Origin: Acidobacteriota bacterium
Lineage (GTDB): Bacteria > Acidobacteriota > Thermoanaerobaculia > Gp7-AA8
Length of the DNA: 64,000 bases
Reading direction: 5' to 3'
Assembly (NCBI GenBank): GCA_019244185.1
Contig: JAFATB010000006.1
Span: forward strand, 416,001-480,000
The notes beneath the pieces were generated by a model. The model had not been told where the DNA came from. It saw only the letters and a list, made by a program, of their open reading frames with translations, and did not search any database. This document shows, one piece after another, positions 10,673 through 38,029 of this stretch. Position 1 is the stretch's first letter; every line of letters starts with the position of its first letter. The translations under genes were made by a program, and so were the position numbers.

Positions 10673-12070
10673 GTGCCGCCACGCAATGCGCGCCCCGAAG
10701 CGTCTCTCTACCCGGCTACCGCTTCCACCAAAGCGGACGCCGTCGCCTTCTATCGCTCCATCGCGAAGTTCATCCTGCCGCACCTGCGCCACCGGCCGCT
10801 CTCGTTCAAGCGCTACGTCGATGACGTGCGCGGCGAATCGTTCTGGGAGAAGGACGCGCCGTCGTTCACGCCGGCGTGGGTGAAGCGCTTTCCGGTGCCG
10901 CGGCGCGACGGACCGCCGATCGAATACATCGTCGTCGACAACGCGAAGACGCTGCTCTGGATCGCGAGCGTCGGCGGAATCGAGCTGCATCCGTTTCTGC
11001 ATCGCGTGCCGCACATCGACGTCGCCACGCACGTCGTCTTCGATCTCGATCCCGGTCCCGGCGCCGGTCTCGCGGACTGCGCACGCGTGGCGCTGCTGCT
11101 GCGCGACGCATTGCGCACGATCGCGCTCGAATCGTTCGCGAAAGTCTCCGGCTCGAAAGGCATTCAGGTGTACGTCCCGCTCAACAGCGACGTGCCTCAT
11201 ACGGCAACGGAGCCGTTCGCGCGCGTGGTCGCCGAGGAGCTCGCGCGCGCGTATCCGAAACTCGTGGTGGCGCGGATGGCGAAGTCGCTGCGCGCGAAGA
11301 AGGTGTTCATCGACTGGAGCCAGAACGCCGATTTCAAAACGACGGTCGCCGTCTACTCGCTGCGCGCGAAACGCGACGTACCGCTCGTGTCGATGCCGGT
11401 GCGCTGGGAAGAGCTCGAGCGCGATCCGCAGCGGCTCGAGTTCTCGCCCGACGCCGCGCTCGCGCGGCTGCGCAAACTCGGCGATCTCTTCGCGCCGGTG
11501 CTGACGATGCAGCAGACGCTCAATGTCGCCGCGCCGAAGCGTCGCGCGGCGAGCGCAACGCAACGCGCACGGCGCGAATCGGCGACGTCACTGCCGAAAG
11601 CGCGGTCGCAGTCGGGACGCCGTTTGTTTCTGCTGACGAAGACGGAAATGGGCGAAGAGCTGTGGCTCGACATGAACGGCGTCTTCACGCGCTGGATTCT
11701 CCGCCGCGATCGCGAGGGCGGACCGCGACTCGTGGCGATGCCCGCGGGCACGTTCCCGATCGATCCCGCTTATCGACGCGGTGAAGTGCCCGCGCAATGG
11801 AAGGGACGCACGACGATCGAAGACGCAGGCGCGCACGAGATCGTCGAAGGCAGCTTCGCGCGCGAGCGCTTCGCGCTGTGGTTCAGCGGCAAGATCCTCA
11901 GCGGTGCGTGGACGCTCGTGAAGTCGCCGGGCGCGGCGCACAAGTCGTGGCGGCTCGAGCCCGCGCAACGCAAAGCGCCGCAACGCAAACCAACGCGGCT
12001 CAAGCCAGCGCGGACAGGCGATGCCCGGTCGTCCGCAAAATCGCGTCGACGTCGTAGCGGCGGCCGCTGA
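10673..12070 (+). CDS. LigD-type primase/polymerase domain fused to a degenerate phosphoesterase domain
   Basis: FDLDPG, KVSGSKGIQVYVP, VFIDWSQN, TTVAVYSLRA; C-terminus follows the PE-domain pattern (FSGKILSGAWTLVK). Confidence 0.85.
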   Translation: MPPRNARPEASLYPATASTKADAVAFYRSIAKFILPHLRHRPLSFKRYVDDVRGESFWEKDAPSFTPAWVKRFPVPRRDGPPIEYIVVDNAKTLLWIASVGGIELHPFLHRVPHIDVATHVVFDLDPGPGAGLADCARVALLLRDALRTIALESFAKVSGSKGIQVYVPLNSDVPHTATEPFARVVAEELARAYPKLVVARMAKSLRAKKVFIDWSQNADFKTTVAVYSLRAKRDVPLVSMPVRWEELERDPQRLEFSPDAALARLRKLGDLFAPVLTMQQTLNVAAPKRRAASATQRARRESATSLPKARSQSGRRLFLLTKTEMGEELWLDMNGVFTRWILRRDREGGPRLVAMPAGTFPIDPAYRRGEVPAQWKGRTTIEDAGAHEIVEGSFARERFALWFSGKILSGAWTLVKSPGAAHKSWRLEPAQRKAPQRKPTRLKPARTGDARSSAKSRRRRSGGR

Positions 12071-15240: not shown

Positions 15241-16923
<1,683 letters not shown>

Positions 16924-17031
16924 ACGGACTACGGATATGTGCGCGGCCCGCGCGTGCATTCCCGTGACGGAACCGCACCAACGCGGGAACGGCGTCTTGA
17001 CCGCGCTTCCGGCCCCGTCTACGGTTGCCAC

Positions 17032-17466
17032 ATGAAACGGCTTCCGCTTGCCGTCGTCATGTCCCTCGTCTTCGCGGCGGGAGCTCTCGCCGACGATCTC
17101 GAGGTCATCCAACGGCTCGATCACGAGATCACCGTCGCCACCTGGACGGCCGATCCGGTGTGGTTCGAGGAAAACCTCGCTGACGACTACGTGCTCATCA
17201 CGCCGGCGGGCACGATCCGCACGAAGGCGGACGTCATCCGCGAGCTCGGCGTCCCCGGCTTCAAGATGGCGCCGTTCGAGTCGACGGAAGTGCAGATCCG
17301 CATGTACGGCGACACCGCCATCGTCACCGGACGGATGCTGCAGCGCTCGACCGTCGGCGGCCTGCTCTACTCGCGCGACCTTCGCTACACCGACGTTTAC
17401 GTGCGCCGCAAAGCGCGCTGGCAGCTCGTGAGCGGGCATACGTCGACCGTCGGCAACAAGCGCTGA
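17032..17466 (+). CDS. Secreted NTF2-like (DUF4440) protein
   Basis: Signal peptide; [26 protein letters not shown]...WQLV. Confidence 0.85.
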
Positions 17467-17493
17467 CGGCCTGCATTCGCGTACTCTAGGTTC

Positions 17494-18924
17494 GTGACGT
17501 CCGGTCCGTTGCCGACGCGGCAATACGGCGACTACGACCTCGAGTCGTTCCTCGGCAAGGGCTCGATCGGCAAGGTCTACCTCGCGCGCCACCGGCGCAT
17601 CGGCCGCCGCGTCGCGCTGAAGACCGTCCATCTCGAGCAGAAGTTCGAGGACGAGATCGACCGCAACGAGTTCTACCGCCGGCTCCAGCGCGAGGCCGAG
17701 CTCTGCGCGGTGATGCAGCATCCGAACATCGTCACGCTCTACGACGTCGGCTACGAGGACGACGTCGTAACGTATCTCGCGACCGAGTACATCGACGGCG
17801 AATCGCTGCTCGGGCGCCTCCGTCGCACGCGCCCCCTGCCGCTCGGCGAGGCGCTCGCCATCGCGTTCGATCTGCTGCGCGGACTCGCGTACGCGCACGG
17901 CAAGGGCATCATCCACCGAGACATCAAGCCGGCGAACATTCTCCTGACGTCGGAAGGTCAGGCGAAGGTCGCCGACTTCGGCGTCGCGCGTCCGCTGCAC
18001 TCGAGCCTCACGACCTCGCGCTCGCTCGTCGGCACGCCGAACTACATGTCCCCCGAGCAGGTGAAGACGACGCCCGTGTCGCCGCGCTCCGATCTCTTCT
18101 CCGCCGGCGTCGTGATCTACGAGATGCTCACCGGCACGAAGCCGTTCGCCGCGCCGGAGCTGAGCGCGATCCTCTACAACATCGTCAACCTCACGCCGCC
18201 GCCGGTGCACGAGCTGAATCCGTCCGTGCCGCCGGCAATCTCGCAGGTCATCGCGAGACTCCTGGCGAAGGATCCGGCCGATCGCTACGAGAGCGCGAAC
18301 GATGCGCTGCGCGCGCTGGATGCCGCGCGTCCGGCGACCACACCCGCCGCGTCAACACCGTTAACCGCGGCGCCGCTGCCGCTCGCGTCCGAGGCCGAGA
18401 CCATCGCGGTGATGCCGCACGATGCGACGACGCCGCTGCCGACGATCGTCGATCCGATCGTTACGCGTCCGATCCTGCGCCGGCGCGTTCCGGGCGCGCT
18501 CTTCTGGACGATCACGCTGCTGCTCATCGCGGGACTCGCGACCGCGGTCGTGCTGCTGCGCCACTCCGCCGCGCGTCAGAAACCGGCCGCCGTGCTGCCG
18601 CCGTCGCTCGTCGCGCAGACGGACGCGAAGCGGCGCGCGCTCGAAAACGCTCGCGCGCTCGTGCGCGGCGGCGCGTATGCGGATGCGATTCGCGCCTACG
18701 ACGCGCTGCTCGCTCGCGCGCCGGAGATGGAAGTCGCGCGCGAGGAACGCGCCGAGGCCCAGCGGCTGCTCGATGCAGCCACGCCGAAGGCGGAGGTGAC
18801 GAAGACCGCGCGCAAGACGAAGCGCGTCGACGACAGCGAACCGGCGGCACAAGCGCAACAGCAGCAGCCGGCGAAGAAGCCGTCGCGGTGGGAGCGCGTC
18901 AAACACTGGTTCCGGGGGAAGTGA
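17494..18924 (+). CDS. Hanks-type Ser/Thr protein kinase with TM helix and C-terminal TPR-like region
   Basis: [26 protein letters not shown]. Confidence 0.95.
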
Positions 18925-19839: not shown

Positions 19840-20337
19840 GTGTCGATCTACGAGCAGCTGTTCGCGCGACTGGCACAAGCGAATGTCCGATACGTCGTGG
19901 TGGGTGGAGTGGCGGTCGTGCTGCACGGGTATCTCCGCGCCACGGCGGATCTCGACCTGGTCATCGATCTCGAAGAAACGAACGCGCGCCGCGCGATGAC
20001 GGCACTCGAACGAGCGGGACTCGAGCCGCTTGCGCCGGTCCGCGCGGCAGAATTCGCGGATGCGGCAACTCGCAGACGATGGATCGATACGAAGAACCTG
20101 CGCGTGTTCTCCTTGCGCGACCCGCACGAGCCCTTGCTCACCGTCGATGTCTTTGCCGAAGATCCGCTTCCGTTCGAGGAACTCTGGACTCGATCGGCCA
20201 TCGTCCGCCTCGGCGGGTGTGACGTCCGCATCGCATCGATTGCCGATCTGCTCGTGATGAAGCGCGCAGCGGCCCGCCCGCAGGATGCCATCGACATCGA
20301 ACACCTGGAACGCATCGCGAAGGAACGCACCTCGTGA
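19840..20337 (+). CDS. Pol-beta-like nucleotidyltransferase
   Basis: YVVVGGVAVVLHG, RATADLDL, MKRAAARPQDAIDI. Confidence 0.85.
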   Translation: MSIYEQLFARLAQANVRYVVVGGVAVVLHGYLRATADLDLVIDLEETNARRAMTALERAGLEPLAPVRAAEFADAATRRRWIDTKNLRVFSLRDPHEPLLTVDVFAEDPLPFEELWTRSAIVRLGGCDVRIASIADLLVMKRAAARPQDAIDIEHLERIAKERTS

Positions 20338-21232: not shown

Positions 21233-22261
21233 GTGTCCGCGAACTGGCTGCTGTACGGCGCGAACGGCTACACCGGCGAGCTGATCGCGCGCGAGGCCGT
21301 GCGCCGCGGCATCCATCCGATTCTCGCCGGCCGCAGCACGGAGAAGATCGAGCCGCTCGCGCGCGAGCTGCAATGCGAATCGCGCGTCTTCGACGTCCGT
21401 AAGCCCGATCTGCGCGGCGTTGCGCTCGTGCTCCACTGCGCCGGGCCGTTCGTGCACACCAGCGCGCCGATGGTCGACGCGTGTCTCGCGTCGGGCGTGC
21501 ACTATCTCGACATCACCGGCGAGATCGACGTCTTCGAAGCAGTGCTCGCGCGCGATGCCGAGGCGAAGCAGCGCAACGTGGCGCTCCTCCCCGGCGTCGG
21601 CTTCGACGTCGTTCCCACCGACTGTCTCGGCGCGATGCTGCATGCGCGCATGCCCGACGCCGTCGAGCTGTGGCTCGCGTTCGACTCGCGCCGCGGCGGC
21701 ATCAGCCGCGGCACGCTGCGCACGATGCTCGAAGGCCTGGGCAAGGGCGGCGCGATTCGCCGCGACGGGCAGATCGTGCACGTGCCGCTCCTGTACGACG
21801 TCCGCGAAATCCCGTACGCAAGCGGCCCGCGCCTGTCGATGACGATTCCATGGGGCGACGTCGCGACGGCGTTTCATACGACCGGCATTCCGAACATCCG
21901 CGTCTACAACGCCACGCCGCCGTCGACCATCCGCCGCCTGCGCCGCACGCGCTATTTCCTGCCGCTGATGCGCATCACGCCGGTCAAGCGCGCGATGCAG
22001 TGGATGTCGACGCGCAACCGCACGGGACCGGGCGAAACGCAGCGCGCGCAATCGCGCGTCGAGTTGTGGGGACGCGTCGTCAATGCACGCGGCGAAGAAG
22101 CCACAATGACCCTGTCGACGCCCGAGGGATATTCATTCACCGTGCTGTCATCGTTGGAGGCGGTGCGGAGAATTCTGCAGGAGCCGCGCGCCGGCGCATT
22201 CACACCCGCGCGCGCCTTTGGAATGAATTTCGTCAATGAGGTATTGACAAACGCACAATAG
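21233..22261 (+). CDS. Saccharopine dehydrogenase-like oxidoreductase
   Basis: YGANGYTG, HCAGPF, HYLDITGE, GFDVVPTD. Confidence 0.9.
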   Translation: MSANWLLYGANGYTGELIAREAVRRGIHPILAGRSTEKIEPLARELQCESRVFDVRKPDLRGVALVLHCAGPFVHTSAPMVDACLASGVHYLDITGEIDVFEAVLARDAEAKQRNVALLPGVGFDVVPTDCLGAMLHARMPDAVELWLAFDSRRGGISRGTLRTMLEGLGKGGAIRRDGQIVHVPLLYDVREIPYASGPRLSMTIPWGDVATAFHTTGIPNIRVYNATPPSTIRRLRRTRYFLPLMRITPVKRAMQWMSTRNRTGPGETQRAQSRVELWGRVVNARGEEATMTLSTPEGYSFTVLSSLEAVRRILQEPRAGAFTPARAFGMNFVNEVLTNAQ

Positions 22262-22276
22262 GCGCGCTATTGTGCG
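22244..22276 (+). promoter_or_regulatory. Sigma70-type promoter with overlapping palindrome
   Basis: TTGACA (22244)-N18-TATTGT (22268); CGCACAATAG-N5-CTATTGTGCG at 22252-22276. Confidence 0.65.
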
Positions 22277-22300
22277 CCACCCTTACAAACGACGACGAAC

Positions 22301-22381
22301 ATGATGACCAAACGCGAACAGAGATATTGGATCGGTCGACCGGAATTTCCGGGAACCGCCGGAGGTACGCTCGTGCCCTAG
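22301..22381 (+). CDS. Putative leader peptide MMTKREQRYWIGRPEFPGTAGGTLVP
   Basis: 26-codon ORF between promoter and terminator; contains the antiterminator-competent GCCGGAGG. Confidence 0.6.
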   Translation: MMTKREQRYWIGRPEFPGTAGGTLVP

Positions 22382-22409
22382 CCGATGCTCAGCATCCGCT
22401 CATTGCACG

Positions 22410-22448
22410 AGCCCCTTCGGTCATGACAGCCGAAGGGGCTTTTTGTTT
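22410..22448 (+). terminator. Intrinsic terminator (attenuator)
   Basis: AGCCCCTTCGG...CCGAAGGGGCT then TTTTGTTT. Confidence 0.85.
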
Positions 22449-22544
22449 GGTTTTTACTGAATTTCGAGGATGAGACCGTCCGGGTCCGGCGGCGCGCAGG
22501 TCGCTGACACTGTCGCGTTCCGTGTACGGGTTCTGACGAAGGAA

Positions 22545-22629
22545 GGTTGATTCCTGCCATGTGTAGCTCATTGGGTAGAGCGCAGGACTGATAATCCTGG
22601 GGTAGCGGGTTCGAATCCCGCCACAACCA
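22545..22629 (+). tRNA. tRNA-Ile(GAT)-like RNA with defective or interrupted acceptor stem
   Basis: D arm GCTC/GAGC, anticodon arm CAGGA-CTGATAA-TCCTG, T arm GCGGG-TTCGAAT-CCCGC; 3' strand CACAACC pairs only 4 bp with the adjacent 5' strand; no encoded CCA. Confidence 0.75.
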
Positions 22630-22639
22630 TCCTTACACG

Positions 22640-22870
22640 CCGACTGACCGCCGTTAGCGGTCACCGGCCGCGGCGTCGAATCGCGGTCAAGCCTGCCGGC
22701 GCTTCTGTAATGGCGCACCGGCAAGCGCGGAAGGAGCTCTGCAGCGCGCGTGCAGCGCGCAATGCGCTCCCACAATGCGGTGCGACGTCATTGTGGGAGC
22801 GCGCGTGGCGGCGCAGCGCTCCGCTCTGTAACGCGTGGCTTTTCCGCGCATTGGGCGCCCGGCCGGTCTT
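22640..22870 (+). ncRNA. Multi-hairpin structured RNA candidate
   Basis: Consecutive and nested stems, including a perfect 14-bp stem 22764-22777/22789-22802. Confidence 0.45.
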
Positions 22871-22894
22871 ATTGAGGAAAGGAGGGACCGAACC

Positions 22895-23995
22895 ATGTTT
22901 CGGCGTATGAAGATTCTTCCGCACGAGCGGGGCCTTCTGTTTCGTGAGGGCGCGTTCGCCGGCGTACTGCGGCCGGGCGTTCATTGGACGTTCGATCCGC
23001 TCCTGAAGCTGCGGCTCTTTGTCGTGTCGCCGCGCAATCCGTGGCTCGACCACCGCGACCTCGACCTCATCGTGAAGTCGGGCAAGCTCGGCGGCGAGGC
23101 CATTGTGGTCGACCTCAAGGACTACGAGCGCGCGCTCGTCTGGATCGACGGCCGCTTCGCGGCGGTGCTCGATACCGGCCTGTACGCGCTGTGGACCGTG
23201 GAGCGCGATGTGCGCGTCGAGATCGTCGACGCGCGGACGATGCGCTTCGACCACGCGGAGCTGCCGGTGATCGTGCGTTCGCGGACGGCGGCGTCCGTGC
23301 TCGAGGTCGTGCATGTGGAGGCCAACCACGCGGGACTGTGGTTCCGCGACGGCGCCTATCAGGCGACGCTCGCTCCGGGCACGTACGCGTTCTGGCGGAA
23401 CGTCGGCAAGCTGCAGGTCCAAATGGTCGATCTCCGCGAGCTGACGCTCGACATCAGCGGTCAGGAGATCATGACGGCCGACAAGGTCACGCTGCGCCTC
23501 AATGCGCTTGTCAACTACCGCGTCACCGATCCGCTGCGGTCGGTCGCGGAGGTCGACGGTGCGGCGCAGGCGCTCTACCGCGCCGCGCAGCTTGCGCTGC
23601 GCGAAGCGGTGGGCGCGAAGGACCTCGACGCGCTGCTCGTCGCGAAGGATGCGCTCGCGGGTGAGCTGTCCGTCGCGATCGCGCCGCGCGCCGCGGAGCT
23701 CGGCCTCACGGTCGTCGCCGCGGGTGTCCGCGACGTCATCCTGCCGGGCGACATGAAGGAGCTGATGAACAAGGTGACCGAGGCGAAGAAGGCCGCGGAG
23801 GCATCGCTGATCACGCGCCGTGAGGAGACGGCGGCGATGCGGATGCAGGCCAACACCGCGAAGATCCTCGAGGCGAGTCCGACGCTGATGAAGCTGAAGG
23901 AGCTCGAGGTGCTCGAGAAGGTCGCGCACAAGGCGAACCTCACCGTGGTCCTCGGCGACGAGGGCCTGGCGGACAAGGTCGTCAAGCTGCTGTAA
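22895..23995 (+). CDS. Slipin (SPFH/band-7) family protein
   Basis: AAAGGAGG RBS; repeated ERGLLF..G....L.PG units; QEIMTADKVTLRLN, VRDVILPG, RREETAAMR.QANTA. Confidence 0.92.
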   Translation: MFRRMKILPHERGLLFREGAFAGVLRPGVHWTFDPLLKLRLFVVSPRNPWLDHRDLDLIVKSGKLGGEAIVVDLKDYERALVWIDGRFAAVLDTGLYALWTVERDVRVEIVDARTMRFDHAELPVIVRSRTAASVLEVVHVEANHAGLWFRDGAYQATLAPGTYAFWRNVGKLQVQMVDLRELTLDISGQEIMTADKVTLRLNALVNYRVTDPLRSVAEVDGAAQALYRAAQLALREAVGAKDLDALLVAKDALAGELSVAIAPRAAELGLTVVAAGVRDVILPGDMKELMNKVTEAKKAAEASLITRREETAAMRMQANTAKILEASPTLMKLKELEVLEKVAHKANLTVVLGDEGLADKVVKLL

Positions 23996-24051
23996 CGACG
24001 CAGGGAGGGCAGGCCGTCCAGCGGGCCTGCCCTCCCGAGGTAAAGAAGGAG

Positions 24052-24690
24052 ATGAACAAAGACAAAGTTCGGGACATGATCCGCAGCATCCTGCCGTCGA
24101 AGGCGCGGGTGGGCGCGCGGTTCGGCAAGAGGTTCGAAAAGCGGCGCGTGCGCCACGCCATTCGCGCGGCGTTGCGCGCGGGAACGTTCGACGCCGATCT
24201 GCGGCGCGACGCGGACCTCTCGACGGTCGTCTGGTGGCGGCGCACCGCCGACAAGCTCCACCCTTTCATGCGCTGGTGCCGCGCGCGCACCGCGGGCATG
24301 ACGCCGGAGGAAGCGCTCGGCTACGTGCGCGGCCTGTTGCCGCGGAATCTCATCGGCGATCACGCGTACGGACACTGGGAAGCGGTCGTGCGGCCGTACA
24401 TGGGCCGGCTGCCGACAGTTCGCACGCGGCTCGACGTCGGGACGCTCTGCACGCGTTTGCGCGCGGCGTACGAGCGCGATCCGTCGCTCGTCGGGATGTT
24501 GAACGCCGCGATCAAGAGCCGTATCGCATTCGACGAACCACGCCGGCTGCTGTTCGGCGTGCACGACATCGACGCCTTCGCACGCGACGCGCTCCGACGC
24601 GGGAGCATCGAGCTCGATTGCGCGATGGCAATCATGGAAGAGATCGAAGGGCGGCCGAACGGCCGCCCTTCCCATTTTCGCGCCGCGTGA
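24052..24690 (+). CDS. Hypothetical Arg-rich protein
   Basis: AAGGAG RBS; follows slipin; no family recognised. Confidence 0.75.
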   Translation: MNKDKVRDMIRSILPSKARVGARFGKRFEKRRVRHAIRAALRAGTFDADLRRDADLSTVVWWRRTADKLHPFMRWCRARTAGMTPEEALGYVRGLLPRNLIGDHAYGHWEAVVRPYMGRLPTVRTRLDVGTLCTRLRAAYERDPSLVGMLNAAIKSRIAFDEPRRLLFGVHDIDAFARDALRRGSIELDCAMAIMEEIEGRPNGRPSHFRAA

Positions 24691-24713
24691 TATAGCGTTC
24701 CCTCAACGAACCC

Positions 24714-27700
24714 ATGTCCCTCGATCGCTTTCATCCCGTCCTCCAACGCTGGTTCTCTGACACCCTCGGCACTCCGACACCCGCGCAGCAGCAAGGGTGG
24801 TCCGCCATCCGCGAGCGCCGTCACACGCTCATCGCCGCGCCGACCGGCTCGGGTAAAACGCTCGCGGCGTTTCTGACCGCGCTCGACGACCTTTTCGTCG
24901 AAGCGCTGACCGCGCCGCTGCCTGATGAAGTGCGCGTCGTCTACGTCTCGCCGCTGAAAGCGCTCAGCGCCGACATCCACAAAAATCTCGCCGAGCCGCG
25001 CCACGGAATCCGCCGCATCGCGGAAGAACTGAACATCGACGCGCGCATCACGGCCGGCGTGCGCACCGGCGACACGACCTCGAGCGAACGCGCGGCGATG
25101 CTGAAGACGCCGCCGCACATCCTCGTCACGACGCCGGAGTCGCTCTACCTCCTGCTCACCGCCGAGCGCAGCCGCAACATGCTGCGCAGCGTGCGCACCG
25201 TGATCGTCGACGAGATTCACGCCGTGATCGGCACGCGCCGCGGCGCGCACCTCGCGCTCACGCTCGAACGCCTGCAACACGTCGCCGAAGCGCCGCTCCT
25301 GCGTATCGGACTCTCCGCGACGCAGAAGCCGATCGAAGCCGTCGCGCGCTATCTCACCGGCGGCGGCGACTGCACGATCGTCGACGAAGGCCACCGCCGC
25401 GCGATGGACCTCACGCTCGAGGTGCCGCGCTCGCCGCTCGAAGCGGTGATGTCCGCGGAAGTGTGGGAGGAGTATTACGACGCGCTGGTGCGGCTCATCG
25501 AGTCGCATCGCACGACGCTCGTCTTCGTGAACACGCGCAAGATGGCCGAGCGCGTCGCGCGTCACCTCAGCGATCGCCTCGGCGAAGACGCGGTGACCGC
25601 GCACCACGGCAGTCTCTCGAAAGAGAACCGTCTCGACGCGGAGACGCGGCTCAAAACCGGTCAGCTGAAAGCGCTCGTCGCGACGGCGTCGCTGGAGCTC
25701 GGCATCGACATCGGCCACGTCGATCTGGTCTGCCAGCTCGGCTCGCCGCACCGCATCGCCACGCTCCTGCAGCGCGTCGGCCGCTCGGGACACACCGTCT
25801 CCGGGCTGCCGAAAGGACGCGTCTTTCCAACCTCGCGCGACGATCTCTTTGAATGCGCGGCGCTGCTGCGCGCGGTCAAGCGCGGCGAGCTCGATCAGAT
25901 CGTCACGCACGACGCCCCGCTCGACGTGCTCGCACAACAACTCGTCGCCGAATCGTCGTGCGACGACTACGCGGAAGACGCGCTCTTCGCGCTGGCGAAA
26001 CGCGCGTGGCCGTACCGCGCGCTCGAACGCGGCGCGTTCGACGACGTCGTGAAGATGATGGCCGACGGCTTCGCCACGAAGCGCGGACGCCGCGGCGCGC
26101 TCATGCATCGCGACGAAGTGCACGGCAACGTGCGCGGACGCCGCGGCTCGCGCCTGCTCGCGCTCACGTCCGGCGGTGCGATCCCGGAAGTCGCCGACTA
26201 CCGCGTCGTGCAGGAGCCGGACGAGACGTTCATTGGAACGCTCAACGAGGACTTCGCGATCGAGAGCAACATCGGCGACGTCTTCCAGCTCGGCAACACT
26301 TCGTGGCGCGTGCTGCAGGTGTCGGGCGGCGTCGTGCGCGTCGCGGATGCGCACGGCGAGCCGCCGAGCATTCCGTTTTGGCTCGGCGAAGCGCCCGCGC
26401 GGAGCGACGAGCTGTCGCGCGCGGTGAGCTCGCTGCGCGCCGATCTCGAGCCGCTGCTCGACGATCGCGAGGCCGCGATCGCGTGGCTCGTCGACGCGTG
26501 CGGGATTCCGCGCGCCGCCGCCGAGCCGCTCATCGAGTACCTCGCCGAATCGCACCGCGTCCTCGGCACACTCCCGACGCAACAGACGCTCGTCCTCGAG
26601 CGCTTCTTCGACGAGTCGGGCGGCATGCAGCTCATCCTCCACGCGCCGTTCGGCAGCCGCATCAACAAGGCGTGGGGGCTCGCGCTGCGCAAGCGCTTCT
26701 GCCGGCAGTTCGATTTCGAATTGCAGGCCGCGGCGACGGAGGACGCGATCCTCTTGTCGCTCGGCCCACAGCATTCGTTTCCGCTCGCGGATGTCTTCCG
26801 CTATCTGCATCCCGCGACCGCGCGCGACGTGCTCGTGCAGGCCTTCCTCGACGCGCCGGTGTGGCAGACGCGCTGGCGGTGGAACGCGACGATCTCGCTG
26901 GCGGTGCCGCGCAATCGCAACGGCAAGAAGATCGCGCCGCAGTTGCAGCGCACGCTCGCCGACGATCTGATGGCCGCGGTGTTCCCAGACGCCGCAGCGT
27001 GCTTCGAGAACATCGGCGGCGACCGCAAGATCCCCGATCATCCGCTTGTCAACCAAGCCGTGCGCGACTGCCTCGAGGAAGCGATGGACTTCGACGGCCT
27101 CGCGCGCGTGCTGACCCGCATTCACGCGGACGAGCTGACGCTCGTCGCGCGCGATACGCCCGAGCCGTCGCCGCTCGCGCACGAGATCCTCAACGCGCAG
27201 CCGTACGCGTTTCTCGATGATGCGCCGCTCGAGGAGCGCCGCACGAACGCGGTCTACACGCGCCGCGTCGCCGACGCCGCGTCCGCGCGCGAGCTCGGCG
27301 CGCTCGACCTCGCGGCGATCGAACGCGTGCGCGACGAAGAGCGGCCCGATCCGCGCGATGCGGACGAGCTGCACGACGCGTTGCTGACGTTCGGCTTTCT
27401 CACGGACGAGGACGCGCCGCACGAGCTCTTCGACGCGCTCGCCGCGGCGAAACGCGCGACGCGCGTGCACGGACTCTGGTTCGCCGCGGAGCGCCTGCCG
27501 GAGCTCCTGGCCATTCATCGCGTCGAGACGACGATCGCGCCGCCGGCATCGCGCCTCACGCGCACGTGGTCGCGCGAGGAAGCGCTCGTCGAGTTGCTGC
27601 GCGGACGGCTTTCGCTCGTCGGACCGGCGACGTCTGACGCGCTCGCGTCGCTGCTCGCGGTACCGCAATCGAACGTCGACGCCGCGCTGCTCGCGCTCGA

Positions 27701-28913
27701 AGGCGAGGGCGCGATTCTGCGCGGCAACTTCACGCCCGGCGCGTCGCAGCTCGAATGGTGCGACCGGCGCCTGCTCGCGCGCATCCACCGCTACACGCTC
27801 AATCGTCTGCGCGCGGAGATCGAGCCGGTCACCGCCGCCGACTTCACGCGTTTCCTCTTCGCGTGGCAGCACGTGACGCCGTCGTCGCGCCTCAGTGGCA
27901 TCGATGGACTGCAGGAGCTGCTCGCCCAACTCGACGGCTTCGAACTCGCCGCAAACGCGTGGGAGCGCTCGGTGCTGCCCGCGCGCATGGACCGCTACGA
28001 CGCGTCGATGCTCGACACGCTCTGCTTCGCCGGCGTGGCCGGCTGGGCGCGCGTCTCACCGCCGACCGGCGCCGCGCTGCCCGTCGGCGCGACGCCGATC
28101 GCGCTGTTTCTCCGCGAGCACGCGGCGACGTGGCAGTCGCTGCGCGAGACGGCGCCGGTCGCGTTGTCCGAACAAGCGCAACGCGTCGTCGACACGCTTC
28201 GCGCGCGCGGCGCGTCGTTCGCGCGCGAGCTCGCGGCGCTCTGCGAGCTCGACGAAGCCGCGCTCGAACGCGCGCTCGGTGAGCTGGTCTGCGCGGGACT
28301 CGTGACGTCCGACGGCTTCGCCGGTCTGCGCTCGCTCGTGCGCGCGTCGCACGAGAAACGCGCGCGCACCGACGTCGCGGGACGGTGGTCGCTGCTCGCC
28401 TCCGACGCGAACGGCGACGACGCGCTGGAGCTGCAGGCGCGCACGTTCCTCCGCCGCTACGGCATCGTCTTCCGCCGCCTCCTCGCGCGCGAGTCGAACG
28501 CCGCGCCGTGGCGCGAGCTCGCACGCGTCTACCGCCGCATGGAAGCGCGCGGCGACCTGCGCGGCGGCCGCTTCGTCGCCGGCATGCCCGGCGAACAGTT
28601 CGCGCTCCCCGACGCCGTCGAACGCCTGCGCGAGATCCGCCGCACCCCGCACGACGGCACGCTGGTCGTGCTCTCCGCCGCCGACCCGCTCAACCTCACC
28701 GGCACCACCTCGCCCGGCGATCGCATCCGCGCCACACCCGGCACGCGCATCGCGTACCGCGACGGCGTGCCGGTGTCCGTGATGGAAGGCGACTACGTGC
28801 GCCCGCTCACGGACATCGAATCGAACGACGCGCTCACCGTCGCCGCCGCGCTCGCGGGGCGTGCGGTCGCGGCGGGGCGGGGGTGGGTGGGGCGGGGGTG
28901 GGTGGGGCGGTGA
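24714..28913 (+). CDS. lhr: Lhr family ATP-dependent helicase
   Basis: APTGSGKT, TTPESL, DEIH, LSAT, HHGSLS, QRVGRSGH; long C-terminal region. Confidence 0.93.
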   Translation: MSLDRFHPVLQRWFSDTLGTPTPAQQQGWSAIRERRHTLIAAPTGSGKTLAAFLTALDDLFVEALTAPLPDEVRVVYVSPLKALSADIHKNLAEPRHGIRRIAEELNIDARITAGVRTGDTTSSERAAMLKTPPHILVTTPESLYLLLTAERSRNMLRSVRTVIVDEIHAVIGTRRGAHLALTLERLQHVAEAPLLRIGLSATQKPIEAVARYLTGGGDCTIVDEGHRRAMDLTLEVPRSPLEAVMSAEVWEEYYDALVRLIESHRTTLVFVNTRKMAERVARHLSDRLGEDAVTAHHGSLSKENRLDAETRLKTGQLKALVATASLELGIDIGHVDLVCQLGSPHRIATLLQRVGRSGHTVSGLPKGRVFPTSRDDLFECAALLRAVKRGELDQIVTHDAPLDVLAQQLVAESSCDDYAEDALFALAKRAWPYRALERGAFDDVVKMMADGFATKRGRRGALMHRDEVHGNVRGRRGSRLLALTSGGAIPEVADYRVVQEPDETFIGTLNEDFAIESNIGDVFQLGNTSWRVLQVSGGVVRVADAHGEPPSIPFWLGEAPARSDELSRAVSSLRADLEPLLDDREAAIAWLVDACGIPRAAAEPLIEYLAESHRVLGTLPTQQTLVLERFFDESGGMQLILHAPFGSRINKAWGLALRKRFCRQFDFELQAAATEDAILLSLGPQHSFPLADVFRYLHPATARDVLVQAFLDAPVWQTRWRWNATISLAVPRNRNGKKIAPQLQRTLADDLMAAVFPDAAACFENIGGDRKIPDHPLVNQAVRDCLEEAMDFDGLARVLTRIHADELTLVARDTPEPSPLAHEILNAQPYAFLDDAPLEERRTNAVYTRRVADAASARELGALDLAAIERVRDEERPDPRDADELHDALLTFGFLTDEDAPHELFDALAAAKRATRVHGLWFAAERLPELLAIHRVETTIAPPASRLTRTWSREEALVELLRGRLSLVGPATSDALASLLAVPQSNVDAALLALEGEGAILRGNFTPGASQLEWCDRRLLARIHRYTLNRLRAEIEPVTAADFTRFLFAWQHVTPSSRLSGIDGLQELLAQLDGFELAANAWERSVLPARMDRYDASMLDTLCFAGVAGWARVSPPTGAALPVGATPIALFLREHAATWQSLRETAPVALSEQAQRVVDTLRARGASFARELAALCELDEAALERALGELVCAGLVTSDGFAGLRSLVRASHEKRARTDVAGRWSLLASDANGDDALELQARTFLRRYGIVFRRLLARESNAAPWRELARVYRRMEARGDLRGGRFVAGMPGEQFALPDAVERLREIRRTPHDGTLVVLSAADPLNLTGTTSPGDRIRATPGTRIAYRDGVPVSVMEGDYVRPLTDIESNDALTVAAALAGRAVAAGRGWVGRGWVGR

Positions 28914-37122: not shown

Positions 37123-37273
37123 GCGCGCGTAGTGTCGCGGTTCGGGCCGCCTGACGCAACCGGCCGGCGCAGCCGGGCGCGCGCAAACGCGCGGGCCGTA
37201 TTAGACTGCCGCCGTGTCACGGAAGCCTCTCTTTGAAAACGAGGACGCCGACTACGGCGACTCATCCCGCAAC

Positions 37274-38029
37274 ATGAGCGAAAGCAAAATTGCCCTGTTC
37301 GTCGACTTCGAGAACATCGCCATCGGTGTGATGGACGCGAAGTACAAGAAGTTCGAGGCCAGCCTTCTCCTCGAGCGCCTGCTCGAGAAAGGGAAGATCG
37401 TGGTCAAGCGCGCGTACTGCGACTGGGACAAGTTCCCGGACTACAAACGCGAGCTCCACGAGGCGGCCATCGAGCTGATCGAGATCCCGGGACGCGGCTA
37501 CTCGGGCAAGAACTCCGCCGACATCCGCATGGCCGTCGATGCGATGGACATGTGCTGGTCGAAGGAGCACATCGATCTCTTCGTGATCGCTTCGGGCGAC
37601 TCGGACTTTTCGCCGCTGGTGTCGAAGCTGAAAGAGAACGACAAGTACGTCATCGGCTGCGGCGTGAAGAATTCGTCGAGCGATCTGCTGATCGACAACT
37701 GCGACGAGTTCATCTTCTACGAGGATCTCGTGCGCGGCGTGCAGAAGGCGCCCGCGGTGGCGTTTCAGGACAAGAAGAAGGCCGAGGTGTTCAAGCTGCT
37801 CATCGACTCCATCAAGGCGCTCATGCGCGAGAACAAGGAGATTCTCTGGGGCTCGATGGTGAAGCAGACGATGCAGCGCAAGAAGCCGACGTTCAACGAG
37901 GAGTACTACGGGTACAACACGTTCAGCGATCTGCTCGAGGACGCGCAGACGAACAACATCATCAAGATCAAGAAGGATCTGAAGTCGGGGTCGTATGTGA
38001 TCACGGGCTTTGCGCAGCCCGCGGCCTGA
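37274..38029 (+). CDS. NYN domain protein with C-terminal LOTUS/OST-HTH
   Basis: FVDFEN, GKNSADI, SGDSDF, FNEEYYGYNTFSDLL; alternative GTG start at 37214. Confidence 0.9.
   Translation: MSESKIALFVDFENIAIGVMDAKYKKFEASLLLERLLEKGKIVVKRAYCDWDKFPDYKRELHEAAIELIEIPGRGYSGKNSADIRMAVDAMDMCWSKEHIDLFVIASGDSDFSPLVSKLKENDKYVIGCGVKNSSSDLLIDNCDEFIFYEDLVRGVQKAPAVAFQDKKKAEVFKLLIDSIKALMRENKEILWGSMVKQTMQRKKPTFNEEYYGYNTFSDLLEDAQTNNIIKIKKDLKSGSYVITGFAQPAA

Follow-up and report, generated by a model that had tools for sequence, protein, structure and literature searches.

What might a bacterium do with an SPFH/Band-7 protein that has no membrane anchor and whose gene stands behind a leader open reading frame (ORF), a terminator, and an RNA shaped like a tRNA? 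The question is raised by a locus in a 64,000-nt stretch of DNA from an Acidobacteriota bacterium (contig JAFATB010000006.1, positions 416,001 to 480,000, forward strand), to which we refer as the window. We found that the conserved unit of this locus is a composite RNA followed by the gene for a soluble slipin (Table 1). According to the available part of Wang et al. 2018, which cites Burroughs and Aravind 2016, some bacterial RtcB genes adjoin the gene for a Band-7 protein and a tRNA-like noncoding RNA (ncRNA) named “b7a-tRNA,” which the same source describes as not experimentally validated. As far as the literature searched shows, the pair has remained no more than a computational prediction since 2016. 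The locus in the window is that Band-7/b7a-tRNA pair, and its core is hence a known prediction; what may be new is the attenuator in the leader, the wider architecture of the RNA, the connection with tRNA arrays, and a common enterobacterial version.

An operon of this kind had been proposed from the sequence of the window before any comparison was made (referred to here as the original prediction), and every feature that it listed was found where it had been placed. Compared with what had been proposed, the conserved unit stops short on one side and has more in its middle part. We scanned for relatives of the slipin in one genome per species and obtained 558 matches; counts out of 80 given below refer to the best 80 of these genome matches, which are 58 to 79% identical to the slipin in the window and come from Acidobacteriota, Planctomycetota, Hydrogenedentota, and a few other phyla (loci are denoted by handles beginning with L). 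Altogether, the relatives number thousands; the best 120 listed are 75 to 90% identical, and those with named bearers belong mostly to Thermoanaerobaculia.

Table 1. Coordinates of the features of the slipin locus and its flank within the window
Feature	Position	Strand	Description
Promoter-like site	22244-22275	+	−35 TTGACA 22244-22249, −10 TATTGT 22268-22273, spacer of 18 nt
Leader ORF	22301-22381	+	26 codons
Candidate antiterminator strand GCCGGAGG	22358-22365	+	Pairable with 22414-22421, the 5' arm of the terminator
Intrinsic terminator	22409-22455	+	13-bp stem 22409-22441, then T run
Conserved 5' motif	22512-22559	+	Small hairpin CCG-UGNA-YGG, then GUUCUGACGAAGG
tRNA-like cloverleaf	22560-22628	+	D and T arms conserved, anticodon loop variable, acceptor stem of 3 to 4 bp, no conserved CCA
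Conserved hairpin after tRNA-like part	22646-22662	+	Conserved block in close relatives
Rod-like RNA domain	22663-22867	+	Closing helix 22663-22670/22860-22867, then U-rich stretch
Shine-Dalgarno AAAGGAGGG	22878-22886	+	8 nt ahead of slipin ATG; conserved among relatives
Soluble slipin (SPFH/Band-7), 366 amino acids (aa)	22895-23995	+	Pfam PF01145 (Band_7)
Perfect G+C-rich hairpin, no T run	24004-24035	+	Between slipin and Arg-rich ORF
Arg-rich all-alpha protein, 16.5% Arg	24052-24690	+	Lineage-specific neighbor outside conserved unit
Lhr-type helicase (lhr)	24714-28913	+	Starts 23 nt after Arg-rich ORF; local neighbor only

A composite RNA is conserved directly upstream of slipin

The protein-coding neighbors of slipin are mostly not shared among the 80 loci; the shared part is the RNA. 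The loci were searched with a sequence profile and then with a covariance model (R1) of the 45-nt 5' motif and the tRNA-like part, which scores 107.4 bits in the window. In the window and in 68/80 loci, a full-length R1 match of at least 79.9 bits directly precedes slipin on the same strand; the training alignment of R1 took in 63 of these 68, and L018, L022, L071, L077, and L078 lay outside it. Variant or weaker matches were obtained in L035, L045, L001, L065, L005, L004, L041, L007, and L006. Two of the 12 loci without a full match (L019 and L043) have no upstream flank, and the remaining ones carry interrupted or reduced forms of the RNA, down to a lone T arm. An exact 21-nt form of the 5' motif occurs once per locus in 18 loci and always upstream of slipin. 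The RNAs upstream of slipin are conserved together with it, which is the opposite of the outcome that the original prediction had named as counting against itself. The sequence CUGACGA in the 5' motif suggested a hammerhead ribozyme; this candidate was rejected, as there are no conserved GAAA or stems and no Rfam hit.

The tRNA-like element lies 270 nt upstream of slipin on the same strand. Rfam matches positions 22560 to 22625 to its tRNA family with 57.9 bits (E value of 3e-11), and the match is confined to model positions 4 to 67 of 71, which leaves an acceptor stem of 4 bp. RNAalifold gives it 3 bp, neither value reaching the 7 bp of a functional tRNA gene, and ARAGORN calls no tRNA at the element. 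Across phyla, the D and T arms hardly vary over 64 sequences, and the anticodon stem and 3-bp acceptor stub covary: 98.8% of the cells are paired compared with 24 to 47% when the partners are slid, with 133 cells changed on both sides compared with 31 in shuffles, and none of 500 shuffles reaches the observed score. The anticodon loop has 7 nt in 54 of the 64 sequences, of which 29 have U33, and those 54 carry 28 different triplets, so that the combination of U33 and an anticodon fixed among orthologs, as in a functional tRNA, is absent. Because the D and T arms are kept while the anticodon varies and no CCA end is conserved, we consider the element a tRNA mimic that keeps the elbow and not a decoder. 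The original prediction had called it a defective tRNA-Ile; its tRNA-like nature holds, but the Ile identity, read from a GAU in the anticodon loop, is incidental given the many triplets of its relatives. A longer acceptor stem formed from the flanks was suggested by the single-sequence minimum free energy (MFE) fold of the window and dropped as unsupported across 65 sequences.

Additional copies of the tRNA-like element were observed in some loci. A tandem second copy lacking the 5' motif is present in L014 (5542-5608), L015 (2849-2915), L018 (5562-5627), L032 (5296-5360), L011 (5543-5609), and L013 (5537-5602), and a copy lies just downstream of slipin in L038 (7287-7352) and L039 (7170-7284).

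The stretch from 22457 to 22894 folds at −221 kcal/mol (z = −4.3), and none of 100 shuffles folds as well. The hairpin that follows the tRNA-like part has a counterpart at the same place in many Planctomycetota, with a 5-bp stem and a 7-nt loop resembling an anticodon loop. Downstream of it, what had originally been described as approximately 230 nt of hairpins turned out to be one conserved rod-like RNA domain and not a set of loose hairpins. A sequence profile of the close group matches the window at 22641 to 22867 (E value of 8e-38). The planctomycete rod, built from 24 loci, comprises 12 helices with 84 pairs in total and a side hairpin, the version in the window being shorter; 86.1% of its cells are paired compared with 34 to 41% with slid partners, 61 of the 84 pairs are altered on both sides, and none of 500 shuffles reaches the observed values. 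A tandem G-A step lies in its closing helix, and a U run comes after that helix. In the window, only 10 nt separate the end of the 3' closing strand from the Shine-Dalgarno sequence; in many loci, an unconserved spacer of 30 to 250 nt separates the rod from the ribosome-binding site. With the close-group and planctomycete profiles combined, the rod domain is found in 67/80 loci. A direct sequence-profile link between the planctomycete rod and that of the window was sought and failed. We consider the two rods homologous because both profiles match the same stretches of L020, L024, and L027, which thus serve as a bridge, and because the two versions share short blocks. None of four instances of the rod (from the window, L059, L063, and L082) matches a family in Rfam 15, and this strongly covarying domain is possibly new.

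The slipin has an SPFH core but no membrane anchor

The gene that had been recognized as encoding an SPFH protein indeed carries a Band_7 domain (PF01145, E value of 7.9e-34, residues 141 to 311), and it starts at the ATG at 22895 rather than at the GTG at 22835 of the longest ORF. The protein consists of three beta repeats of approximately 65 aa, the SPFH core, and a long helix. The repeats are copies of one beta unit (residues 7 to 62, 76 to 129, and 141 to 186; E values of 1e-8 and 3e-6), the third of which opens the SPFH core. In membrane-anchored stomatins and HflK/C, the N terminus forms a hydrophobic hairpin or transmembrane helix; here the beta repeats occupy that place. No transmembrane or hydrophobic segment was detected in the protein, the maximum 19-residue Kyte-Doolittle mean being 1.51, inside the SPFH core. 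The closest solved structures are those of stomatins, HflK/C, prohibitin, and erlin. A search of the Atlas with the N-terminal part returned mostly clusters bearing Band_7 and some unnamed ones. The slipin has no match in 50,697 phage records and corresponds to no PADLOC family.

A leader ORF and a near-invariant terminator precede the RNA

The upstream end of the locus was compared within a close group of 22 sources, namely, the window and 21 related loci. A loose terminator pattern matched 30 of 81 sources; eight matches without a hairpin plus T run (L033, L044, L045, L047, L051, L069, L072, and L077) were dropped by eye before the counts out of 22 were made. The terminator stem is near-invariant in 22/22 sources, with one compensated change in L002. 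The terminator sequence of the window occurs nowhere else in its 64 kb, and terminator-like sites are no more common in the region than expected by chance (2 found and 2.5 expected). Ahead of the terminator, all 22 sources have an ATG-initiated ORF whose stop lies 24 to 34 nt before the stem. The sequences of the encoded peptides differ among the sources and show no conservation. Within the ORF, 5 to 6 codons ahead of its stop, a CCGGAGG motif is kept as RNA in 22/22 sources, even across reading-frame differences; it belongs to the candidate antiterminator strand, and GCCGGAGG/CCUUCGGU is the proposed antiterminator pairing. The corresponding helix appears in the partial-transcript MFE fold of 15/22 sources.

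The promoter-like site TTGACA-N18-TATTGT is the only one in positions 21900 to 25000, where shuffles average 0.3, and no further one occurs from the terminator to slipin. A 9-nt inverted repeat (22253-22261/22267-22275) covers the spacer and the −10 element, and a G+C-rich stretch, of a kind typical after the −10 element of stable-RNA promoters, precedes the likely transcription start near 22279. The promoter block is kept in 22/22 sources of the close group. An alignment of the entire upstream region was made for 12 relatives; the −35 element and the G+C-rich block are kept in 12/12 of them, and by eye the inverted repeat is evident in only approximately 3 to 4. In most of the 12, the start codon follows the G+C-rich block by a few bases; in the window, it follows by approximately 20 nt.

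These observations agree with the promoter with a palindrome, the leader peptide, and the terminator named in the original prediction, and its attenuator gains support from an arrangement kept in all close relatives. Trp-type leaders and antibiotic-responsive leaders such as bmrCD consist of a short leader ORF and then alternative antiterminator and terminator hairpins. The short ORF of the window is likewise directly followed by an intrinsic terminator, and its layout, as far as can be judged from the sequence, is that of a ribosome-sensing attenuator. It differs from those leaders in that it has no run of regulatory codons and its peptide is not conserved, and in that the candidate antiterminator strand lies inside the ORF. 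The combination of a leader ORF, a near-invariant terminator, and a plausible antiterminator is possibly new.

Some relatives lie in tRNA arrays or beside RNA-repair genes

Based on ARAGORN, 26/80 loci contain at least 10 same-strand tRNA genes and 18/80 contain at least 20, and in those 26 loci slipin is located inside or at the end of arrays of 10 to 35 tRNA genes. A recurring array end reads His, HNH gene, Trp, Thr, Arg, Arg, Arg, Cys, 5' motif with tRNA-like part, and slipin. The ORF of approximately 200 aa within the arrays encodes an HNH endonuclease and is present in 21/80 loci. That the module sits within long tRNA arrays that also carry an HNH endonuclease gene is possibly new. In the window, there is a single further tRNA gene, 39 kb away, and no array of at least 20 same-strand tRNAs.

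Some details of the arrays are worth recording. The array continues past slipin in L018, L037, L045, and L049, which places slipin inside it. Odd array members reported by ARAGORN, with 2- or 4-base anticodons or as tRNA-Ile(tat), occur in L023, L036, L039, L056, L069, L073, and others, and in L056 a stop-codon reader (tta) is called just ahead of slipin; several of these odd members are the tRNA-like element itself.

The original prediction had linked Band-7 genes and tRNA-like RNAs to RtcB-type RNA-repair neighborhoods. The link is in print in the available part of Wang et al. 2018, and it recurs among the relatives: RtcA/RtcB genes follow slipin in L032, L061, and L076, and an RlaP gene follows it in L068. 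As had been noted for rtcB and TROVE, the 64-kb window itself contains no such partner; genes for RtcB, RtcA, RlaP, TROVE, and HNH proteins were all looked for there, and none was found.

In a plasmid collection, full-length slipin relatives with 31 to 37% identity come from Burkholderia, Photobacterium, Citrobacter, and E. coli; all nine matches in this collection are typed as nonmobilizable, and several of the records exceed 1 Mb. The gene order in Citrobacter is rtcR (divergent), a 449-nt gap, slipin, and RlaP, and the gap contains a sigma-54-like motif, a T-arm hairpin, and a short match to the 5' motif. The enterobacterial slipin-RlaP pair (L081 and L082) is located between rluF and lysC, and at least 80% of the E. 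coli slipin and upstream region is present in 1,629 of 5,426 complete E. coli genomes. This RtcR-linked enterobacterial version is possibly new.

Relation to known systems

Like the b7a-tRNA module, the locus in the window combines a Band-7 domain protein with an adjacent ncRNA strongly resembling a tRNA, and its relatives sit beside RtcB, RtcA, and RlaP; it departs from that module in that RtcB adjacency is absent and in that a leader ORF and terminator, instead of RtcR, would regulate it. The 5' motif, hairpin, and rod around the tRNA-like part and the link to tRNA arrays are described here. The comparison with an RtcR-controlled rtcBA operon is closest in Citrobacter, where rtcR is divergent from slipin-RlaP with the sigma-54-like motif between them, whereas the promoter of the window is sigma-70-like and has neither RtcR nor a sigma-54-type promoter with it.

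In YrlA/Y RNAs, which act with Ro60 (Rsr), a tRNA-like module is joined to a long helical part, and such RNAs occur in RNA-repair neighborhoods (Wang et al. 2018, available part). The RNA in the window resembles them in its conserved D and T arms, its lack of a usable CCA end, and its long helical part, but it has an anticodon arm, and its long helix does not enclose the tRNA-like part but follows it on the 3' side. No match to the YrlA/Y RNA families of Rfam was found at E values up to 5, and the window contains no TROVE domain.

The slipin also recalls the vault particle, given its beta repeats, SPFH-like domain, and long helix and the small structured RNA associated with it. In Foldseek, it aligns with the major vault protein over 412 to 419 columns (E value of about 1e-9), i.e., over more columns with a weaker score, whereas stomatin and HflK/C match it better (E value of 7e-16). 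Moreover, the slipin is far smaller and has three repeats, and nothing in its sequence and model, by which it is known here, gives evidence for a closed shell.

Horizontal transfer spreads long tRNA arrays, with HNH genes traveling alongside, and in Anabaena translational stress induces the array as well as rtcB and an HNH gene (Santamaria-Gomez et al. 2021, PMC8421152, available text). The relatives of the slipin share with these systems their same-strand arrays of 10 to 35 tRNAs with HNH, and the window is without an array. The terms SPFH, band 7, stomatin, HflC, and slipin are absent from the main text of PMC8421152 and of Tran et al. 2015, as far as those texts are accessible, and the RlaP preprint does not mention slipin. 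No paper joining tRNA arrays or tRNA-like RNAs with slipins was found in the literature searched.

Proposed function

Building on the anatomy, conservation, RNA structures, and gene neighborhoods observed, we infer cotranscription, a direction of switching, binding between RNA and protein, and a cellular role, and we propose with moderate confidence that the locus encodes a translation-sensing switch placed before an RNA-slipin particle whose targets would be damaged tRNAs or ribosomes, a proposal that agrees with the whole anatomy. The locus would be a stand-alone Band-7/tRNA-like RNA (“b7a-tRNA”) module expressed as one transcript from the promoter near 22244-22279, with the leader ORF and terminator made first. 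Ribosomes that keep pace with the polymerase would, at the leader stop, cover GCCGGAGG, so that the terminator could form and stop transcription near 22455; under slow or damaged translation, the GCCGGAGG strand would pair with the 5' arm of the terminator, and transcription would run on. The read-through RNA would contain approximately 400 nt of conserved structure (5' motif, cloverleaf, hairpin, and rod) and then the slipin message. The slipin, which has no membrane anchor, probably forms rings or cages like other SPFH proteins; we read it as a soluble oligomer because it combines the lack of a hydrophobic segment with a stomatin-type SPFH core and a long helix. It may bind the upstream RNA, with the conserved tRNA elbow as the likely handle. 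The resulting ribonucleoprotein would act upon tRNA or ribosome damage, alone here and elsewhere with RtcB/RtcA/RlaP or spare tRNA arrays. The theme of translation or tRNA damage is suggested by the RtcA/RtcB/RlaP neighbors, the tRNA arrays with HNH genes, and the induction of the Anabaena array.

Several observations weigh against this proposal. The complete leader folds into the terminator in 22/22 sources, so that the folds do not settle which state is the default or which way the switch works; the automated antiterminator test fails in 7/22 sources, where the pairing of the upstream sequence with the terminator arm is only partial or of another kind; and with so little variation in the leader motif and terminator stem, covariation cannot probe the alternative pairing. 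The U run after the closing helix in Planctomycetota means that the RNA could end there as a separate ncRNA. On the protein side, the N-terminal repeats belong to no recognized RNA-binding family, and the slipin model is only of moderate quality, with a predicted local distance difference test (pLDDT) value of 65 and with residues 84 to 135 below 50, so that its N-terminal part is uncertain. Finally, RtcB lies within 6 kb of slipin in only 4/80 relatives and not in the window, and all such counts describe the best 80 of the 558 matches.

The position of the RNA, always on the same strand and directly before slipin, would also be expected if it were purely a cis-acting 5' untranslated region (UTR), riboswitch-like or tRNA-sensing, that sets slipin expression and has no protein partner. 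The 3' strand of the closing helix ending so close to the Shine-Dalgarno sequence in the window and the U run after the closing strand in Planctomycetota, which resembles a long-range terminator, are in keeping with such a role. However, the unconserved spacer present in many loci is a poor fit to direct occlusion, an RNA of 400 to 600 nt that includes a full tRNA elbow would make a large switch, and L038 and L039 carry extra tRNA-like copies after slipin. We consider a purely cis-acting RNA unlikely. It is distinctly unlikely that the promoter, leader ORF, and terminator form a separate small gene, for a small protein or small RNA, with the tRNA-like RNA and slipin transcribed independently. 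The terminator is strong, has a long T run, and is the MFE state in 22/22 full-length leaders, all of which speaks for a separate gene, but no second promoter-like site is present in 21900-25000, the arrangement is fixed beside the RNA in 22/22 close relatives despite differing flanking genes, and the lack of conservation of the peptide argues against a functional small protein.

The association with tRNA arrays allows a different interpretation, in which the module is cargo of mobile tRNA islands that protect or replace tRNAs hit by the anticodon nucleases of competitors or phages, the window being a stripped remnant that lost its array. The 26/80 loci with slipin in or at the end of an array, the HNH endonuclease in 21/80, the 58 to 79% identity of slipins across phyla among the best 80 of 558, and the horizontal transfer of long arrays with HNH genes (PMC8421152, available text) fit this interpretation, yet the slipin is missing from the phage records and from PADLOC, and its plasmid-collection matches are all nonmobilizable, several of them in records of more than 1 Mb. 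We give cargo of this kind only a slim chance, and it overlaps with the switch-and-particle proposal rather than excluding it. Finally, the tRNA-like element could be a decaying pseudogene followed by hairpins of a functionless G+C-rich UTR, as its rejection by ARAGORN, its truncated acceptor stem, the irregular anticodon loop of its relatives, and the retention of the T arm only in some of them might suggest. The near invariance of the D and T arms across phyla, the covarying stems, and the conservation of the flanking motif and rod with compensatory changes speak otherwise, and since the covariation of cloverleaf and rod already contradicts decay, a pseudogene is very improbable.

Taken further, the proposed RNA-slipin particle could be a soluble SPFH ring or cage assembled on a 400- to 600-nt RNA that joins a tRNA mimic to a rod, as a bacterial counterpart of vault and Ro-Y RNA particles and the core of “translation damage” islands with lineage-specific sensors. 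We offer this extension as speculation and think it fairly unlikely. Depending on the lineage, such islands would surround the particle with tRNA arrays and HNH, with RtcB/RtcA/RlaP, or with nothing, and damaged translation would be sensed by a leader-peptide attenuator here and by RtcR in enterobacteria.

The locus and its relatives supply a defined multipart RNA that has strong covariation and no Rfam family, together with a proposed sequence-encoded switch simple enough for reporter work. Cultivated carriers are available in Lacipirellula limnantheis I41 (L052), Adhaeretor mobilis HG15A2 (L068), and Bythopirellula polymerisocia Pla144 (L059), and approximately 30% of complete E. coli genomes have the enterobacterial version. 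Given the tie to tRNA arrays, the puzzles posed by “cryptic” tRNA arrays and by soluble SPFH proteins may have a common solution. If the slipin does bind RNA, this would be a new role for SPFH proteins; to our knowledge, no other SPFH protein has RNA rather than a membrane protein as its partner, and the slipin would be the first.

Downstream neighbors and other features of the window

The original prediction had extended the operon to an Arg-rich ORF and possibly lhr. Both genes are present as it described, but their membership in the unit does not hold, as the Arg-rich ORF is downstream of slipin in 3/80 loci and lhr is near slipin in 6/80. The Arg-rich ORF has no Pfam, NCBIfam, or PADLOC family, and none of its 127 homologs is named for a function, those with names being “hypothetical.” The model of its protein is all-alpha (pLDDT of 85.8) and has no fold match in the PDB (best E value of 1.7), and a search of the Atlas with it returned unnamed clusters only. 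Approximately nine pairs of Arg-rich-ORF and slipin homologs are listed with contigs of equal length, which hints at further linkage within the class. A predicted complex of slipin and the Arg-rich protein scored 0.00, which we counted neither way.

A perfect hairpin at 24646-24671, near the end of the Arg-rich ORF and inside it, codes for GRPNGRPS, with four T residues after it; the same peptide is present in the homolog P0057, and the hairpin may be a weak terminator before lhr. The Lhr helicase scores 1,591 bits against the PADLOC model named DpdJ and 63.9 bits against DpdJ of NCBIfam, for which the cutoff is 800, and the window showed no further Dpd gene.

Elsewhere in the window, a small nucleotidyltransferase of the DUF6036/AbiEii type is encoded 2 kb upstream of the locus (19840-20337, + strand). 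A class I tRNA synthetase of the Glu/Gln type (15241-18210, − strand, 989 aa) has its catalytic domain from residue 459 onward and a long N-terminal part without a Pfam match. Farther away are genes for a stand-alone LigD primase-polymerase domain protein (10673-12070, + strand) and an NYN-domain protein (37214-38029, + strand).

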